The position numbers and the translations under genes are program-made. Below are positions 9,578 to 27,181 of a stretch of DNA of 37,183 nucleotides, in pieces; position 1 is the first letter of the stretch, and every line of letters starts with the position of its first letter. The notes under the pieces were generated by a model. The model was not told the DNA's origin, did no database searches, and saw nothing but the letters and a program-made list of their open reading frames with translations. Source of the DNA: a virus (Duplodnaviria; Heunggongvirae; Uroviricota; Caudoviricetes). The DNA lies in the IMG/VR virus record IMGVR_UViG_2537562195_000008; one strand, given 5' to 3'.

Positions 9578-10048
9578 ATGTCTATCGAGGAAAAATTTTT
9601 TAGTGATATCGATTTAAAAGATCCGTTTTTTAACAGCCTAAGAGCTGATTATGAAGGATTTGATGTTTGGTTTCTCTCAAAAGGTAAAAATAAGGCGTTT
9701 GTATCACGTAATGAATTAGGTGAAATCGATGGTTTTCTCTATTTGAAAATAGAAGATGAAGAGTTGAGTGATATGACTCCAACGTTTCCAAAGATGAAGC
9801 GAGTAAAGCTTGGCACATTTAAAATCGATGCTCATGGAACCAAACTTGGAGAGCGTTTTATTAGAATTATGTTTCAATTTGCTATGAGAAACAAACTAAA
9901 AGAAGTATATGTTACTATATTTGATAAGCATTCAGGGTTAATTCGCTTATTAACTAAATATGGTTTTGTTTTAAAGGCGAGGAAAAATCTTTCTACGATT
10001 AATGGGCAAGAAGGTGTATACTTTAAAAACTTGGTATGGAAGGAGTAA
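9578..10048 (+). CDS. Hypothetical protein, possibly GNAT-fold N-acyltransferase-like; island gene 1
   Basis: 156 aa; C-terminal half (…KLGTFKIDAHGTKLGERFIRIMFQFA…EVYVTIFDKHSGLIRLLTKYGFVL) resembles GNAT motifs A/B; AT-rich. Confidence 0.5.
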   Translation: MSIEEKFFSDIDLKDPFFNSLRADYEGFDVWFLSKGKNKAFVSRNELGEIDGFLYLKIEDEELSDMTPTFPKMKRVKLGTFKIDAHGTKLGERFIRIMFQFAMRNKLKEVYVTIFDKHSGLIRLLTKYGFVLKARKNLSTINGQEGVYFKNLVWKE

Positions 10049-10051
10049 AAA

Positions 10052-10633
10052 ATGAGCTATGCTAATTATCCCTTAGTCAAATTGCAGGGGAGAAATTATT
10101 TATTAAGTATTTATCCTGCATGGCATACACGTCTTTTCCCTGAGTCAAAACTCCACAATGAGAGTGCTGGTATCATCGCTGATATATCACATACCAACAG
10201 TATTGAAAAAGTATACTTAACAAAAATGCATGGGGTAGCCAGCCTAAAGCCTGGAGATAATTTGCTTATTTATCGTACTTCAGATGGACAAGGTCCAGCT
10301 CGGTTTAGATCTGTTGCAACTTCAGTGTGTGTGGTTCAGGAAATTAAAGATATTCACGATTTCTTAACTTATGAGGAATTTAAGAATTACTGTGAACCTT
10401 ATAGCGTTTTTGATGAAGATGAGTTACAGCTTCTATATATGAAAAAAAATTATCCGATAATTATACGGTTTACTTATAATTTCCCTTTGGAAAAAAGAGT
10501 TATTCGTGATGAAATCATGAATATTACAGGTTATACCAATAGTGATTATTGGGGTTTTTTACCACTAACTGATTCAGCATTTAAGCAGATTGTCTTACAG
10601 GGAGGTGTTGATGAAAGTTTTATTATCGATTAA
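10052..10633 (+). CDS. Hypothetical protein; island gene 2
   Basis: 193-aa ORF tightly linked (4-nt gap) to the upstream gene; no motif recognised; AT-rich. Confidence 0.55.
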   Translation: MSYANYPLVKLQGRNYLLSIYPAWHTRLFPESKLHNESAGIIADISHTNSIEKVYLTKMHGVASLKPGDNLLIYRTSDGQGPARFRSVATSVCVVQEIKDIHDFLTYEEFKNYCEPYSVFDEDELQLLYMKKNYPIIIRFTYNFPLEKRVIRDEIMNITGYTNSDYWGFLPLTDSAFKQIVLQGGVDESFIID

Positions 10634-10980
10634 GCCAGAGTATGCAGAGAGTATACTTTCTGGTAAAAAAATATGAGTTTCGGAAAAATATTTTTAGAAA
10701 TAAAAATGTTGATACGATAGTTATTTACGCAACGATGCCGGTTGGCAAAGTAATAGGTGAATTTAAAGTAGGAGATATTCTTGCTCTATCCCCTTCAGAA
10801 TTGTGGGATAAAACGAAAGCTCATGCAGGAATTACACATTCTTTTTTTAAAGATTATTTCCACCAAAGAGAAAAGGCTTTTGCTATTTCCATCAAAAGCC
10901 CTAAAAGATATAAATTCCCTGTCGACTTAAATGAGTTGATTCCCGGCGGCGTCGCCCCACAGTCTTATCGTTATTTATAA
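10611..10980 (+). pseudogene. ASCH/PUA-like domain protein interrupted by a frameshift at an A7 tract; island gene 3
   Basis: ATG at 10611 encodes MKVLLSIKPEYAESILSGKK then hits TGA; the listed ORF 10642..10980 continues in another frame with …YEFRKN…IVIYATMPVGKVIGEFKVGDIL…AFAISIKSPKRYKFPVDL…; together they form a typical ASCH domain; the frames meet at poly-A 10665..10671. Confidence 0.5.
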
Positions 10981-11520
10981 TGTTGTCTGGGCATGTTTCT
11001 TAACCATGCCCAGTTTTTCTAGGGCAATAGATAAATCGTTTGTTGTTGGGGATTCTAAGATAATTAATGGTACATTGATTTTATTTGTAACATATTTTGC
11101 GTTTTCTCTTTCAGCTTCCATCAGCTTATTTAAATCATAAGTAATATCACTCCCATCTCGTTTCATTATTCGTTCTCTAATTGTATCGGGAGACTCCTCA
11201 ACTAAAATTACTCCATCTAGCCCCATTTCCTCAAATACTTCTTGCTTGAGAACTTCAATATCTCCATTTTTATTTATTAAGGTAAAATGACCATCCAATA
11301 AAATATTGGATACCTTTGACTTTAATGCATTAAGTGCCGTAAGTAATATTGATTGGTTTTTATCAGGTGTGGCCGTTAACTTACTGTTATCAAATTTAAT
11401 ATTAGAATTATTTTTTATAAGTTCGCTTGCGCTTACATGAGTTACCCCGAAATCATCTTTTGCAAATGAACACAAGTAACCTTTGCCTACACCATGAACA
11501 CCTGCTATGAAAATTAACAT
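10975..11520 (-). CDS. P-loop NTPase, nucleotide/nucleoside kinase-like; island gene 4
   Basis: 181 aa; Walker A GVHGVGKG at the N-terminus, hhhhD Walker B-like ILLDGHF; size and layout like small adenylate/dNMP kinase-like ATPases; RBS GGAGG upstream. Confidence 0.6.
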   Translation of the reverse strand: MLIFIAGVHGVGKGYLCSFAKDDFGVTHVSASELIKNNSNIKFDNSKLTATPDKNQSILLTALNALKSKVSNILLDGHFTLINKNGDIEVLKQEVFEEMGLDGVILVEESPDTIRERIMKRDGSDITYDLNKLMEAERENAKYVTNKINVPLIILESPTTNDLSIALEKLGMVKKHAQTTL

Positions 11521-11585: not shown

Positions 11586-11963
11586 ATGAAGTTTCAAGCT
11601 ATATCGATTTTGACTCCAGCGGTAGAAAATATTATAAATGGTTCTAAATCTATCGAAATACGGTCGTGGTATCCTGAAACGATACCATTAAAAAACGTCA
11701 TTCTTGTTCAGAATGATAAATATCTTAAAAATCAAAGCGATATAGATCATGGGGTGGCTATGGCTATTGTCGATTTTGTTTCAGTTAGAAATTGGTCATA
11801 TGAGGATTACTTAAAACAAAACCAAGAAACAACTCTTAATAAGCCTTGGTCTCCAGGTTATTATGTGTGGGAAATTAAAAATGTTAGAATTTTAAAAAAA
11901 TCTATTCCTTGTGTGGCGAGGAAAGGTATTTATACAATAGATTTAAATATGGATTATATATAA
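11586..11963 (+). CDS. ASCH/PUA-like domain protein; island gene 5
   Basis: 125 aa; …SKSIEIRSW… and C-terminal …YVWEIKNVRILKKSIPCVARKGIYTIDL match the ASCH pattern (Y-x-W-x-L…P…kG.qgi) from memory. Confidence 0.6.
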   Translation: MKFQAISILTPAVENIINGSKSIEIRSWYPETIPLKNVILVQNDKYLKNQSDIDHGVAMAIVDFVSVRNWSYEDYLKQNQETTLNKPWSPGYYVWEIKNVRILKKSIPCVARKGIYTIDLNMDYI

Positions 11964-11974
11964 GGTATTGTGAG

Positions 11975-12766
11975 ATGTGTGGTGCCATTCTTCGAAATAT
12001 TAAGCGTTATGCCATTATTTATTCACTGTTGTTTTTGGCTTTTATTTTAATGCTGATAGTGTTTGTTAGCTATGTTTGTAAATTTGGAATGTATTCATGG
12101 AGTGATTCCGTAGAGAAATGGGGACAGTTTGGCGATTATATTGGTGGTGTACTGAATCCTGCTCTGGCCTTTATCTCTATCATGCTTGTTTGTTTCACAC
12201 TATATTCTACATCTAGGCAGTCATCTATTCAGTCATTCGAGTCTGTGTTATTTGAGTTACTAAGATTTCATAAAGATAACTTATCAGAAATTAAAACAAC
12301 GTATTCAGATGGAAAAGTGTATGTAGGACGGGAGGCTCTTTCATTATACATTACCGAAGTGAAGTTTAACCTACTTAATATTGTGGATGATTCACTTCCT
12401 TTGGATGAAAGGTTAGAGCTTTCAGTTAATATGGTTTATCTGGAAGGTGACAATTTTGCGAATGTGGGACATTATTTCAGGAATATTTACCATATTTTTA
12501 AACATATCAATGACTCTAACTATTTGACTGAGAAAGAAAAAACCAAGTATGCGAAATTAGTTAGAGCACAAATATCTTCTATAGAATCTGGCGCGATGCT
12601 ATTAAATGGTTTTTCATCGGTAGGAAAGCCTGCCAAGAAATTTATTGAAAAATATTCTCTCCTTCAGGGGTTTAGTTTAAGTAAGGAATTCAAGCAGCAA
12701 TTACATGATTTAGGTGCCTTAAAATTATACGATGACGTTGCTTATGAGGATAAAAAAGGGCATTAA
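11975..12766 (+). CDS. Membrane protein with two N-terminal TM helices and a cytoplasmic domain (candidate effector); island gene 6
   Basis: Internal ATG of ORF 11909..12766; hydrophobic helices IIYSLLFLAFILMLIVFVSYV and IGGVLNPALAFISIMLVCFTLY; stop overlaps the convergent portal gene stop. Confidence 0.55.
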   Translation: MCGAILRNIKRYAIIYSLLFLAFILMLIVFVSYVCKFGMYSWSDSVEKWGQFGDYIGGVLNPALAFISIMLVCFTLYSTSRQSSIQSFESVLFELLRFHKDNLSEIKTTYSDGKVYVGREALSLYITEVKFNLLNIVDDSLPLDERLELSVNMVYLEGDNFANVGHYFRNIYHIFKHINDSNYLTEKEKTKYAKLVRAQISSIESGAMLLNGFSSVGKPAKKFIEKYSLLQGFSLSKEFKQQLHDLGALKLYDDVAYEDKKGH

Positions 12767-21284: not shown

Positions 21285-22337
21285 ATGATTAAATTAATGT
21301 CTGAATATAATGATGATTATAAAAAACTAGAAAGATATATTGAAGAGTATATTATAAGGAATAGTCTAGGCACTCAGGTATATAAAGAGGATCAGTTGGC
21401 TCAGTCATTAAATAGTGATGAGGGTTTTTCTTATGTGCGTAATAAAATGGATAATTTACCTTCTGATTGTATTGAAGAGTTATCAAACAATATTCAAGGT
21501 GTAGTTACTCTTCCAACAATCTATGATGATCGTGTGAGTTATAGCATTGCATCTCGCTTGATGAGTAAGGTTGAATTAGTAGCAAAGATATTTCCTTTTG
21601 ATCACCAAAACTATGGTGGGTTTTGTTGTGCTCCAACCGGCAGAGTTAGTGCACTTGCCGCGCCAGTTAAATGCCTAGACGGAAAGTCAAAGGTTTTCAC
21701 AATTTTTGAGTCTGGGATTTTTCAATTTATTCATGGTGTAATTAGTTTGTTTGTTAGCAGTTATCCTAATACTCTTCTGCAAGGTAGTAGTGAAAAAGAG
21801 TGGCGGTCAGAGTGGGAAAAATATTTGAGTAGTGAGCAGAATAGAAGCGCTTTATTACAAAGCAAGATTGACTTAAACGAATGGAGGGATTTTTTTAAGA
21901 ATTACAATGTACGTGGTGAACTTGCTTATACATCGATAATTAACTTCGGTCCTGTAGGGCAAAAGATTATATATAATATGGTCTTTGGCTGTGAGTTATT
22001 CGTAGCCGCTCATGAATATTCTCATGCCATGATGAATCATCAGCAGCCTGATTTAGTTGAATCAGAGGTTGAGAAGGAGGCTGACAAATGGGGGATTAGG
22101 ATTGCGTCCATTATATGTGAAGGTGAAGGTATTCTGATGATTCTTGCGATTGCTGGAATAGCTATATTTTTTTCGGCAATTGAAACGTCTGATCCATCTC
22201 ACTATTTACCAGCAGCTGAACGAATATTGTTCGTGATAAAGTCCTTGGAGATCTCTGATCCTATTAAGGAAAAAACTCTTATTGATATTTCTTGTTTAAT
22301 GCAGGATATATTTTCCGACATTATTAATTTTGAATGA
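21285..22337 (+). CDS. Putative Zn-dependent metallopeptidase (HExxH) with C-terminal hydrophobic helix; cargo gene between S and V
   Basis: 350 aa; motif AAHEYSHAMMNH with downstream acidic residues (EVEKEADKWG); hydrophobic stretch ILMILAIAGIAIFFSAI; strongly AT-rich. Confidence 0.6.
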   Translation: MIKLMSEYNDDYKKLERYIEEYIIRNSLGTQVYKEDQLAQSLNSDEGFSYVRNKMDNLPSDCIEELSNNIQGVVTLPTIYDDRVSYSIASRLMSKVELVAKIFPFDHQNYGGFCCAPTGRVSALAAPVKCLDGKSKVFTIFESGIFQFIHGVISLFVSSYPNTLLQGSSEKEWRSEWEKYLSSEQNRSALLQSKIDLNEWRDFFKNYNVRGELAYTSIINFGPVGQKIIYNMVFGCELFVAAHEYSHAMMNHQQPDLVESEVEKEADKWGIRIASIICEGEGILMILAIAGIAIFFSAIETSDPSHYLPAAERILFVIKSLEISDPIKEKTLIDISCLMQDIFSDIINFE

Positions 22338-24888: not shown

Positions 24889-26615
24889 GCACAAAATTTT
24901 ATACCCTGCTGACGGATATTGGCGCGGCGAAACTTGCCAGCGCCGCCGCGCTCGGTGTGCCGCTAAAAATTACCCATATGGCGGTCGGCGATGGCGGCGG
25001 AGTATTGCCAACGCCAGACTCAAAGCAGACTGCACTGGTAAATGAGAAACGCCGGGCTGCGCTGAATATGCTCTATATCGACCCGCAGAACAGCAGCCAG
25101 ATTATTGCCGAACAGGTGATCCCTGAAAACGAGGGCGGTTGGTGGATACGTGAAGTGGGCCTGTTTGATGAGTCCGGGGCATTGATTGCCGTGGGCAACT
25201 GCCCGGAAAGCTATAAGCCGCAACTGGCTGAAGGCAGCGGGCGCACCCAGACCGTGCGCATGGTGCTGATTACCAGCAGCACGGACAATATCACCCTGAA
25301 AATCGACCCTGCTGTCGTGCTGGCAACCCGTCATTATGTAGATCAACAAATAGAAATTCATGAGCAATCGCGCCGCCATCCTTCTGCGTCTTTGACAGAA
25401 AAGGGATTTGTACGTCTGTATAGCGGTGTGGAAAGCAATGATGAAACAGTCGCTGCAACGCCAAAAGCAGTGAAAATAGCGATGGATAATGCCAGCGCCA
25501 GACTGGCAAAAGACCGCAATGGTTCTGATATTCCCAATCCGGCACTGTTTGTTCAGAATCTGGGATTGAAAACGACTGTTGATAAAGCTGCATCAGCGAT
25601 TCAGCCAGGAGATTATGGAATTGGCCTGGCTTATCTGAAAACCATGGGAACCAAATCGCAATTTTTTGCTTATGGTACAGCTGTCGGCTATCCAGAAGTG
25701 CCAACACATGGTGCTGGTTTCCAGGCCTGTTACAACGACAATCGACGTGCACAGATTTATGTCGCTAATGATGGCAAGATGTACTGTCGATTCAGCATGT
25801 TATCGAAAATTGCCGATGATGAAACACCGTGGAATCAGGTGTTCACCAGTGCACATTATCCAGAAGCATCAGTGAGTGTTAAAGGAATGGTGCAACTGGG
25901 GAACGATGTAAACAGCGTGTCAGAAAATGTTGCGGCGACATTGAAAGCGGTAAAAATTGCGATGGACAACGCCAGCGCGAGACTGGCAAAGGACCGCAAT
26001 GGTGCTGATATTCCTGACCCGACTTTGTTTATTCAGAATCTGGGACTTAAACCGACGGTTGATAAGGCTGAAAGTGCTCTGCAACAGGGAGCATACGGAA
26101 TCGGTAGCAATAATAACTACGAAATGGGTGAGGTTTCACAGTTTCTTGCATATTCAGGTAATGCAGATGAAGTGCCATCGAATGGTGCAGGTTTTCAGGC
26201 TGCGTATAACAAGAACAGACGCGCGCAGATTTTCATCACCGGAGCAGGGGAAATGTATCACCGTTTCAGCGGCTCTGATACGGTTAAAGACAATACAACA
26301 CTATGGCGTCGGGGTGTTTGTGAAGATGAATTTTCATTTGGCAGCAATTATCACCGAATAACTGGCGGTGTGCTGAAGCAGTTTTTTAACAGTTATTTTT
26401 CCGGGGCAACTGGTGTGGTGAATAAAGAGTATCAGGTGAATTTTCCGACACCATTTGCCCGTCAGTGCTGGTACGTGATCCCCGTTTTCCGTTCGTCACA
26501 CGGTGGGAGTGTTGAGGGTGTCGCCATTACAGCTATTACTGCAACTGGCTTTACTCTGAGCATCACCGGAGATAACGGTGGATGGAATATTGGGTTTATT
26601 GCGGAGGGGGTCTGA
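24885..26615 (+). CDS. H: Tail fiber protein H with internally duplicated distal module
   Basis: 576 aa; conserved P2-H-like N-terminus (MSTKFYTLLTDIGAAKLASAAALGVPLKITHMAVGDGGG); ATGA overlap with I. Confidence 0.85.
   Translation: MSTKFYTLLTDIGAAKLASAAALGVPLKITHMAVGDGGGVLPTPDSKQTALVNEKRRAALNMLYIDPQNSSQIIAEQVIPENEGGWWIREVGLFDESGALIAVGNCPESYKPQLAEGSGRTQTVRMVLITSSTDNITLKIDPAVVLATRHYVDQQIEIHEQSRRHPSASLTEKGFVRLYSGVESNDETVAATPKAVKIAMDNASARLAKDRNGSDIPNPALFVQNLGLKTTVDKAASAIQPGDYGIGLAYLKTMGTKSQFFAYGTAVGYPEVPTHGAGFQACYNDNRRAQIYVANDGKMYCRFSMLSKIADDETPWNQVFTSAHYPEASVSVKGMVQLGNDVNSVSENVAATLKAVKIAMDNASARLAKDRNGADIPDPTLFIQNLGLKPTVDKAESALQQGAYGIGSNNNYEMGEVSQFLAYSGNADEVPSNGAGFQAAYNKNRRAQIFITGAGEMYHRFSGSDTVKDNTTLWRRGVCEDEFSFGSNYHRITGGVLKQFFNSYFSGATGVVNKEYQVNFPTPFARQCWYVIPVFRSSHGGSVEGVAITAITATGFTLSITGDNGGWNIGFIAEGV
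25401..25800 (+). repeat. Tail-fiber internal tandem repeat, copy 1
   Basis: aa about 173-304 (KGFVRLYSGVESNDETVAATPKAVKIAMDNASARLAKDRNGSDIP…GAGFQACYNDNRRAQIYVANDGKMYCRF) are repeated with divergence at aa about 333-463. Confidence 0.7.
25881..26275 (+). repeat. Tail-fiber internal tandem repeat, copy 2
   Basis: KGMVQLGNDVNSVSENVAATLKAVKIAMDNASARLAKDRNGADIP…GAGFQAAYNKNRRAQIFITGAGEMYHRF; the core is also recognisably similar at DNA level (GCGATGGA(T/C)AA(T/C)GCCAGCGC…GACCGCAATGG). Confidence 0.7.
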
Positions 26616-27049
26616 TGAGTTATTTTTACAGTCCATCAAGAAATGCATTTTATAACAGTGAACTGAAATCTGATTATTACGATGCTCTCGATGCGTGGCC
26701 GGATGACTGTATTGAGGTGAGTGATGCAGTCTATCAGGAGTTTTATCTTGGTTATCGGGAAGGGTACAAAATGGTTGCAGGCACTGATAACCAGCCATCA
26801 TGGGAAGAACGTCCACCATTGACCCATGAGGAACAGGTGGAACAGGCAGAAATGATGAAACAGATGCGCATTAATGAGGCTAACAACCTGATTAATGAAA
26901 AACAATGGCCATCAAAATTACAGCTTGGCAGGCTGAACGAAATGGAGACAACCAGATTTAATGCGATGCTGGATTATCTTGAGTTACTTGAAAATATTAA
27001 TGTAAGTGATGCCCCGGATATAGTCTGGCCTTTATCACCAGAAGTCTGA
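26615..27049 (+). CDS. G: Tail fiber assembly chaperone (P2 gpG-like)
   Basis: Internal ATG sharing one base with the H stop (TGATG); follows the fiber gene. Confidence 0.7.
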   Translation: MSYFYSPSRNAFYNSELKSDYYDALDAWPDDCIEVSDAVYQEFYLGYREGYKMVAGTDNQPSWEERPPLTHEEQVEQAEMMKQMRINEANNLINEKQWPSKLQLGRLNEMETTRFNAMLDYLELLENINVSDAPDIVWPLSPEV

Positions 27050-27053
27050 ATAC

Positions 27054-27073
27054 ATCCCCGCGTCTGCGGGGAT
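27054..27073 (+). terminator. GC-rich hairpin (ATCCCCGC-gtct-GCGGGGAT) just after the fiber-assembly gene
   Basis: 8-bp perfect stem and 4-nt loop, 5 nt after the stop; no clear U-tract. Confidence 0.4.
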
Positions 27074-27181
27074 TCCTGTATCCGCCGTTGTGCCATTTTT
27101 CATACAAACCACATAACGTGCATCCTGCTCGTATCAACCAGAACATAGGCAGACCCCCTCTACTACCGGAGAGACTGCCTT

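Follow-up and report, generated by a model that had tools for sequence, protein, structure and literature searches.

A GNAT-EVE/ASCH module with its ASCH gene split at an A-run in a P2-like prophage of Escherichia coli

Operons that combine a GNAT-EVE protein, in some cases with an additional PIN domain, and an ASCH-domain protein, often together with an AAA_17 protein, have been predicted to be toxin-antitoxin systems of beta- and gammaproteobacterial prophages (Bell, Wolf & Koonin 2020, PMC7641849). That work cites Iyer et al. for earlier work on GNAT-EVE + ASCH operons, describes the association with AAA_17 genes and proposes the analogy of these operons to type II GNAT toxin systems. The GNAT-EVE/ASCH system is thus already described computationally, and a literature search on its members found no experiment. 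PDC-M11 is mentioned in the literature as a 'phage defence candidate', and the record of Escherichia phage PhiR47_2 (PV340567.1) annotates a pair, in the order cI-gevT-gevA, as a GevT toxin of 357 aa and a GevA antitoxin of 125 aa; a literature search for GevT, GevA or GevAT found no paper. Among ASCH proteins, ZmASCH of Zymomonas mobilis (PDB 5GUQ/5GUS) is a Mg-dependent, ssRNA-specific ribonuclease in vitro (PMC5615036).

Here we analyse a locus of this kind in the window, by which we mean the whole stretch of 37,183 nucleotides under study. The window is identical to contig AEZW02000002.1 of E. coli 96.154 (GCA_000215245.2), whose P2-like prophage is otherwise intact, and the GNAT-EVE/ASCH pair lies between gpA/DinI and the portal gene of this prophage, in the gpA-gpQ cargo hotspot. 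The same 3.3-kb island is found at 99.7% identity or more in 8 of 5426 complete E. coli genomes, and megablast found nothing in the phage collection that matches the island.

The module and its neighbourhood

The two 'hypothetical' ORFs upstream of the ASCH gene are the N- and C-terminal halves of one PADLOC profile, PDC-M11A, and they are adjacent to a gene that, once repaired, matches PDC-M11B over its full length (E 1.7e-49), so that both models of the PDC-M11 pair find matches in adjacent genes. The original prediction had entertained the possibility that the island is a defence or toxin module, and the PDC-M11 matches and the likeness to the predicted GNAT-EVE/ASCH toxin-antitoxin operons bear it out. 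The first ORF (9578..10048, + strand; 156 aa, intact; ORF156 hereafter) is the GNAT acetyltransferase half of this split PDC-M11A, or GevT-like, protein. It matches positions 11-160 of the 357 of profile PDLC04419 (E 1e-58), and the exact protein, which is named GNAT family N-acetyltransferase in NCBI and UniRef, is carried by at least 1000 contigs; a Pfam search at E <= 0.01 gave no GNAT family match. The second ORF (10052..10633, + strand; 193 aa, intact; ORF193) is the half with the PUA-like EVE/ASCH fold, and matches positions 166-357 of the same profile (E 6e-69). Its AlphaFold model (pLDDT 83, pTM 0.81) has a PUA-like ASCH/EVE fold, and the top Foldseek matches of this model are ZmASCH (5y6b, E 7e-6), the EVE protein THYN1 and the N-terminal domain of McrB. 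A GNAT domain followed by a PUA-like EVE domain, as in the described operons, is therefore present, on separate polypeptides, and it is accompanied by a small, overlapping ASCH gene downstream, by an AAA_17 neighbour and by the prophage context.

The two halves share one frame (10052-9578 = 474) and meet at an in-frame TAA-AAA-ATG junction (10046..10054, + strand), with a GGAG just upstream of the ATG. Of 80 diverse loci, 60 have PDC-M11A as one fused ORF of about 350-500 aa. The split is seen in all eight E. coli relatives and in loci of Erwinia, Kosakonia, Providencia and Serratia, and stand-alone proteins of the 193-aa type, 59-84% identical, occur across Enterobacterales, Aeromonas and Gilliamella. 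A fresh nonsense mutation as the origin of the split was considered and is ruled out by its presence in four other genera and by the wide distribution of the 193-aa form. To judge from this distribution of sequences, the split is an established variant. The end of ORF193 overlaps the start of the ASCH gene by 23 nt, and the same overlap (upstream end 4023, ASCH start 4001) is kept in most of the 80 diverse loci. Inside ORF193 lies a second homopolymer, of eight A's (10442..10449, + strand), which has this length in the window and in seven relatives and is A7 in LD91-1 (L002, NZ_CP192621.1), where the gene is annotated as truncated; the operon of the window thus holds two A-runs prone to mutation or to error.

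Downstream, and convergent with the ASCH gene, whose stop it overlaps by 6 nt, lies an intact gene (10975..11520, - strand) for an AAA_17, adenylate-kinase-like P-loop protein of 181 aa (Pfam AAA_17, E 8e-19). In 22 of the 80 diverse loci (L024-L103), an AAA_17 homologue is the immediate neighbour of the pair, on its upstream or its downstream side; the two-gene PADLOC definition of PDC-M11 omits this gene. Seven nucleotides after the ASCH stop, within the 3' end of the AAA_17 gene, there is a perfect inverted repeat (10987..11019, + strand) consisting of a 9-bp stem (CTGGGCATG/CATGCCCAG) and a 9-nt loop, followed by T5. The consensus promoter and terminator scan passed over this hairpin, since its loop is longer than 8 nt, and it looks like the terminator of the gevT-gevA transcript. 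Further along, an intact gene for a second ASCH-like protein of 125 aa (11586..11963, + strand; Pfam ASCH E 0.0017, below the cut-off) is followed by an intact gene (11975..12766, + strand) for an AbiC-like putative abortive-infection protein of 263 aa, so annotated in relatives, which is 100% identical to WP_000333697.1 and matches Pfam putAbiC (PF16872, E 1e-18) and PADLOC AbiC (E 1e-5). Both genes co-occur with the split-GevT clade in four other genera, and they may form a separate or a linked module.

Other parts of the prophage also carry cargo. Between the integrase and the CI repressor, where GC is low, a protein of 558 aa is encoded (1137-2813, - strand) with matches to PADLOC PD-Lambda-1 (E 5e-120) and to Pfam T5orf172/MUG113 and DUF4041, which makes its gene a second defence gene in the same prophage. 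In the late operon, an islet with a GC content of 0.34 holds an ORF of 350 aa (21285-22337, + strand), with no Pfam match and a weak match to PADLOC peptidase_U41 (E 2.7e-8); since the relative MLI104K1 has a different gene (DUF6216) in this slot, it is a third cargo site. The region of the distal tail fibre and tail-fibre assembly (25343-27181) differs from that of the closest prophage (L009, 9438-12786), and the window lacks a counterpart of the invertase (recombinase) gene that MLI104K1 carries.

The split ASCH gene and its family

The ASCH gene (PDC-M11B, or GevA-like) starts at the ATG at 10611, which is preceded, 5 nt upstream, by a GGAGG at 10601-10605. The frame opened there encodes MKVLLSIKPEYAESILSGKKI; from the ATG, MKVLLSIKPEYAESILSGKK is read, then Ile and the stop, TGA at 10674-10676, so that the 5' fragment (10611..10676, + strand) comprises 20 native residues and one foreign residue. 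These 20 residues are 100% identical to residues 1-20 of the intact protein, WP_001555843.1. The A-run at 10665..10671 (+ strand), over codons K19-K20-K21, is exactly 7 nt long and is the site of a contraction by 2 nt from an ancestral A9. Past the run, the +1 frame reads KKYEFRKNIF... and stays open to 10980, and the 3' part of the gene (10672..10980, + strand) encodes residues 22-123 of the intact protein. The ORF of the program-made list, 10642-10980, begins at an ATG at 10642 and its first eight residues are out of frame; its product of 112 aa is EIH98177.1 of E. coli 96.154. In a tblastn search, residues 1-20 and 20-123 of WP_001555843.1 are found at 100% identity in two frames that join at the tract. 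The split of an ASCH gene across the A7 run is, on this alignment, not a chance arrangement, and our re-reading of the sequence agreed in every element with the layout first proposed for it: the ATG at 10611, the seven A's at 10665-10671, the TGA at 10674 and the continuation of the domain, up to 10980, in the +1 frame. As for the repair, one A fewer does give an ORF of 122 aa, as had been suggested, and two A's more give one of 123 aa; it is the latter, A9, that is the natural intact form, not A6.

The repaired protein matches the Pfam ASCH family (PF04266) with 27.5 bits, above the cut-off of 21.2, over positions 1-102 of the 103 of the model, as expected for the ZmASCH-like subgroup of this family, and a search of NCBIfam returned no specific family names. 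It has 1659 homologous proteins at E <= 1e-5. Homologues are about 123-135 aa long and the query is covered to 100% in all 120 matches listed. In an alignment of 36 sequences, M1, L5-E10, A12, I15, L16, G18 and K20 are invariant; G18, K20, E23 and R25, which make up a block G18-x-K20-x-x-E23-x-R25, are invariant too, with residue 19 varying among K, E, S, T, N and Y. Because of the full coverage of the query and the invariance of its N-terminal residues, the N-terminal segment belongs to the protein family, as the original prediction had assumed. With a profile of the 36 homologues, the nearest solved relative is ZmASCH (E 1.8e-17 over residues 4-122), in which Leu14 and Trp15 are the homologous N-terminal residues that line the base pocket.

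The tract is located inside the invariant block. In the native sequence, G18-K20 are on the fragment of 21 aa, and E23, R25, Y40 and S119 are in the +1 frame; the features that define an ASCH domain, that is, the N-terminal strand, the G-x-K-x-x-E-x-R block and the cleft residues on one polypeptide, come together only once A9 is restored. Translation from the normal start would end one codon past the A-run, which would leave the other 102 residues in the +1 frame, cut off from the first beta-strand and from the invariant Gly18. The ASCH product of the A7 allele is therefore expected to be inactive: the frameshift cuts through the invariant G18/K20/E23/R25 block, and the severed segment would bear invariant residues and, as the homologues of Leu14 and Trp15 of ZmASCH line the base pocket, part of that pocket.

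Length of the A-run among relatives and origin of the A7 allele

All eight complete E. coli genomes that carry the island have A9 and an annotated 372-nt gene, encoding WP_001555843.1, and six of six further copies of the island, found in JGI metagenomes and IMG/VR contigs by a pattern search that tolerated tract lengths of 5 to 13, have A9 as well. In a census of alleles by exact-sequence look-up in a collection of 15 billion proteins, the A9 product was present on at least 1000 contigs. The A7 product was found on one contig in the cluster listing and on three in the contig look-up, A8-type products on seven and 11, respectively, and the A10 product on two; the in-frame A6 and A12 products were absent from the collection. 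Off-length alleles (A7, A8 and A10) thus add up to about 16 contigs against at least 1000 with A9, which accounts for 98% or more of the carriers, and several of the A8 alleles are on contigs whose underlying data show further homopolymer deletions. Runs with A8 include ERR14114238/9. Each of the three A7 contigs, which come from runs that include ERR10447798 and SRR15989282, is a singleton on a haplotype of its own, and they are homoplasic. The exact gpA protein of the window is carried by 18 contigs, 14 of which are represented by contig L112 (ERR1618191), the nearest relative. Over 8413 bases, L112 departs from the window only in a SNP at 10555 and in the tract, which is A9; it also has 9937G, which is otherwise unique to the window. 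The comparison with orthologous loci in related prophages proposed at the outset thus finds the intact A9 gene in the eight genomes, in the six contigs and in L112. The ancestral state, as read from these loci, is A9 and not A6, and, since L112 is near-identical with A9 and A9 is near-universal, the allele of the window would be derived, by a very recent contraction of 2 nt. Another contig, L012 (ERR10447798), shares the prophage backbone, has A7 and shows no further indel over 3.5 kb; it was considered as proof of an inherited A7 lineage, which is ruled out because the closest relative, L112, shares 9937G and has A9.

Three readings had been offered for the split, namely a recent inactivating mutation, a homopolymer sequencing error and a slippage-prone switch, and, with an A9 tract in a near-identical relative and A7 in singletons, the first two survive; the switch is not supported. 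We regard it as roughly an even call that the split ORF is a loss-of-function allele of the ASCH gene that partners the GNAT-EVE protein, that is, a real and recent mutation. The ancestral A9 run, which encodes Lys19-Lys21, would very recently have lost two A's, probably by strand slippage at replication, and the deletion would be present in the strain and not merely in its assembly. That the strain truly has A9 and an intact gene, the consensus having under-called the longest homopolymer of the region by two bases, is plausible, falling a little short of an even prospect in our estimate. A9 would be the longest homopolymer in the window, where the others are of 8 nt or less, and the closest relative, otherwise one SNP apart, has A9. 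The A7 alleles are singletons on three unrelated haplotypes, a pattern that is also expected from independent sequencing errors and that speaks against a real allele, and many of the A8 contigs bear other homopolymer deletions. The 96.154 assembly dates from about 2011-12, in the pyrosequencing era, and the platform may have been 454, which is error-prone at long homopolymers. Moreover, a null allele of an antitoxin beside intact toxin ORFs should be counter-selected if ASCH is an antitoxin, a paradox that disappears with an artefact. A real allele is favoured, on the other hand, by the behaviour of the rest of the sequence: 43 of the 44 other homopolymers of at least 6 nt agree in length with a relative, about 28 kb of alignment contain no homopolymer indel other than the A7 tract, and the ASCH gene is the only gene split across frames in the 37-kb window. 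Consensus-call errors of 2 nt are atypical, -1 being more usual than -2. It is favoured also by L012, a contig from a separate run with the same backbone, which has A7 and no other indel.

The third reading would make the tract a functional slippage device, either a phase-variable contingency tract or a site of programmed recoding (+1 frameshifting or transcriptional slippage) that yields the full-length protein, and we consider it very improbable indeed. Runs of nine or eight A's are hypermutable, and in bacterial genomes selection against slippage becomes apparent at a run length of 9 nt (Baranov et al. 2005, PMC1088944). Alleles with A7, A8 and A10 recur on several haplotypes, the A8 of the neighbouring gene is a second slippery tract that is also variable, and frame 0 after the run presents a rare AUA and then UGA, where a +1 slip of tRNA-Lys, at a low level, is conceivable. 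However, frequent on/off variation in length among close relatives, as expected of a phase-variable tract, is not what was seen, with about 16 off-length contigs against at least 1000 with A9 and no in-frame A6 or A12 variants in the collection; nor is the tract maintained across the gene family, as in 64 diverse genomic loci the A-run at this position measures 2-8 nt and in no case 9, with an uninterrupted ORF in each. The frameshifted arrangement is found in none of these 64 homologues, in none of the eight complete genomes and in three contigs as compared with at least 1000. As regards recoding, a slippery site leading into a productive frame and accompanied by a stimulatory element was not found at the A7 tract. 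A programmed -1 shift on A AAA AAA is ruled out, since the frame that it enters stops after 17 codons, and there is no SD-like stimulator; downstream of the tract there is a weak, all-A/U hairpin (z = -2.3), which is common to every intact allele. Transcriptional slippage as a major route of rescue is ruled out as well, because A7 is too short: for appreciable slippage, the RNA polymerase of E. coli requires more than seven A's (Koscielniak et al. 2018, PMC6260861). As neither the tract nor the frameshift is conserved, programmed recoding and a phase switch are both unsupported. The nearest homologue of the ASCH protein outside E. coli has Glu19, and, residue 19 being variable, the A9 run seems to have arisen incidentally, when a Glu codon changed to a Lys codon in an AT-rich clade.

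On the two readings that survive, this homopolymer frameshift is of an ordinary kind: the allele is a trivial pseudogene or else an error. For annotation, EIH98177.1 corresponds to the 3' portion of a broken ASCH gene, the intact product of which is WP_001555843.1, and the 'hypothetical' ORFs upstream of it are the two halves of one GNAT-EVE protein. Both mutations and errors readily arise at long A-runs in the AT-rich cargo of prophages, so that pseudogene calls at such runs need the support of reads.

Role of the ASCH gene and comparison with known systems

The ASCH gene appears to be the antitoxin-like partner of the GNAT-EVE toxin. That ASCH neutralises the toxicity of GNAT-EVE is a prediction with indirect support from the GenBank labels, from Tn-seq and from a decay that strikes the acetyltransferase first. 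In the Tn-seq of Dickeya dadantii 3937, three consecutive prophage genes, whose orthology is deduced from gene order and annotation and not from sequence, encode an essential CI repressor, a GNAT protein (01764) with a growth defect and an essential ASCH protein (01763). Among 60 rows sampled from the 275 complete E. coli genomes that carry a lambdoid gevTA, two have an intact ASCH gene beside a disrupted acetyltransferase gene (one by an IS5 insertion, one by a frameshift), one has damage in both genes, and none has damage in ASCH alone (lesion genomes L117, NZ_CP076645.1; L115, NZ_CM142675.1; L114, NZ_CP053245.1); in the P2-type island, the sole lesion in the eight complete genomes is in the EVE half. 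The pattern in complete genomes points, indirectly, to a decay that begins with the toxin, the acetyltransferase being lost before ASCH.

A broken antitoxin beside an intact toxin is disfavoured by the essentiality in Tn-seq, by this acetyltransferase-first decay and by the lesion in the EVE half. In the window, both toxin halves have exactly the consensus sequence, which at least 1000 contigs carry, and with the putative antitoxin broken and the toxin ORFs intact, ASCH is not obviously the expendable part. The suggestion that this gene is the component that a host can afford to lose is thus at odds with its annotation as an antitoxin, its essentiality in Dickeya and the earlier decay of the acetyltransferase. 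If the allele is real, the split GNAT/EVE variant would tolerate the loss of its ASCH partner, and this would be a natural genotype, with a broken partner and intact toxin genes, that bears on the antitoxin model. A further reading, which we hold to be improbable as a whole, is that A7 is real, that the lysogen lives with a null ASCH 'antitoxin' beside intact GNAT and EVE genes and that the ASCH protein of the split GNAT/EVE variant would accordingly be no antitoxin of the classical kind. In that case, the system might need a trigger to become active, another island gene might neutralise it, or a slippery A9 in the antitoxin might serve to tune or trigger the toxin, as a point of dosage control or of failure. 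The second ASCH gene (11586..11963) was considered as a paralogous back-up and rejected, as it has no detectable similarity to the broken one.

With respect to known cases of run-length change, the locus resembles the homopolymer frameshift pseudogenes described in PMC1088944 and in PMC6260861, in that a coding A-run of the critical length of 9 is changed and the frame broken, a change that these sources describe as a consequence of replication slippage. It is unlike the 'savior' transcriptional slippage of the same two sources, since the A7 of the window, which needs a change of -1 or +2 nt, is too short, and its frameshift has no conservation that would suggest use. With respect to ZmASCH, the residues of the window family aligned to its functional Tyr47 and Ser128 are the invariant Y40 and S119, whereas its Lys53 is aligned one position off (G46/K47); ZmASCH is stand-alone, chromosomal and studied in vitro, without a known partner toxin, whereas the broken ASCH gene adjoins a GNAT-EVE pair.

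The type II GNAT toxins AtaT/AtaR, TacT/TacA and ItaT, which acetylate aminoacyl-tRNA, are similar to the module in having a GNAT-fold toxin with a small neighbouring gene that neutralises it, borne on mobile elements. The antitoxins of AtaT, TacT and ItaT are DUF1778/RHH proteins encoded upstream, in contrast with the ASCH protein encoded downstream in the window, and the GNAT of the window, unlike these toxins, is tied to an EVE reader domain and has no GNAT match in Pfam at E <= 0.01. The window module shares its prophage location and its AAA_17 neighbour with the predicted GNAT-EVE/ASCH operons, and its context links the PADLOC candidate PDC-M11 to these toxin-antitoxin operons and to the 'GevTA' annotation. 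GevTA of PhiR47_2 has the same gene order and the same 23-nt overlap; GevA is 54.5% identical to the repaired ASCH protein, and GevT aligns to both ORFs of the window, its residues 13-156 to ORF156 (41% identity, E 6e-37) and its residues 166-356 to ORF193 (49% identity). Unlike GevTA, the window has GNAT and EVE as two ORFs parted by an in-frame TAA and a frameshifted ASCH gene, and its operon travels with the extra ASCH and AbiC-like genes. In Salmonella phage SopEPhi, the pair orf12/orf13, with 65% identity, occupies the same slot between DinI and the portal gene as the module described here.
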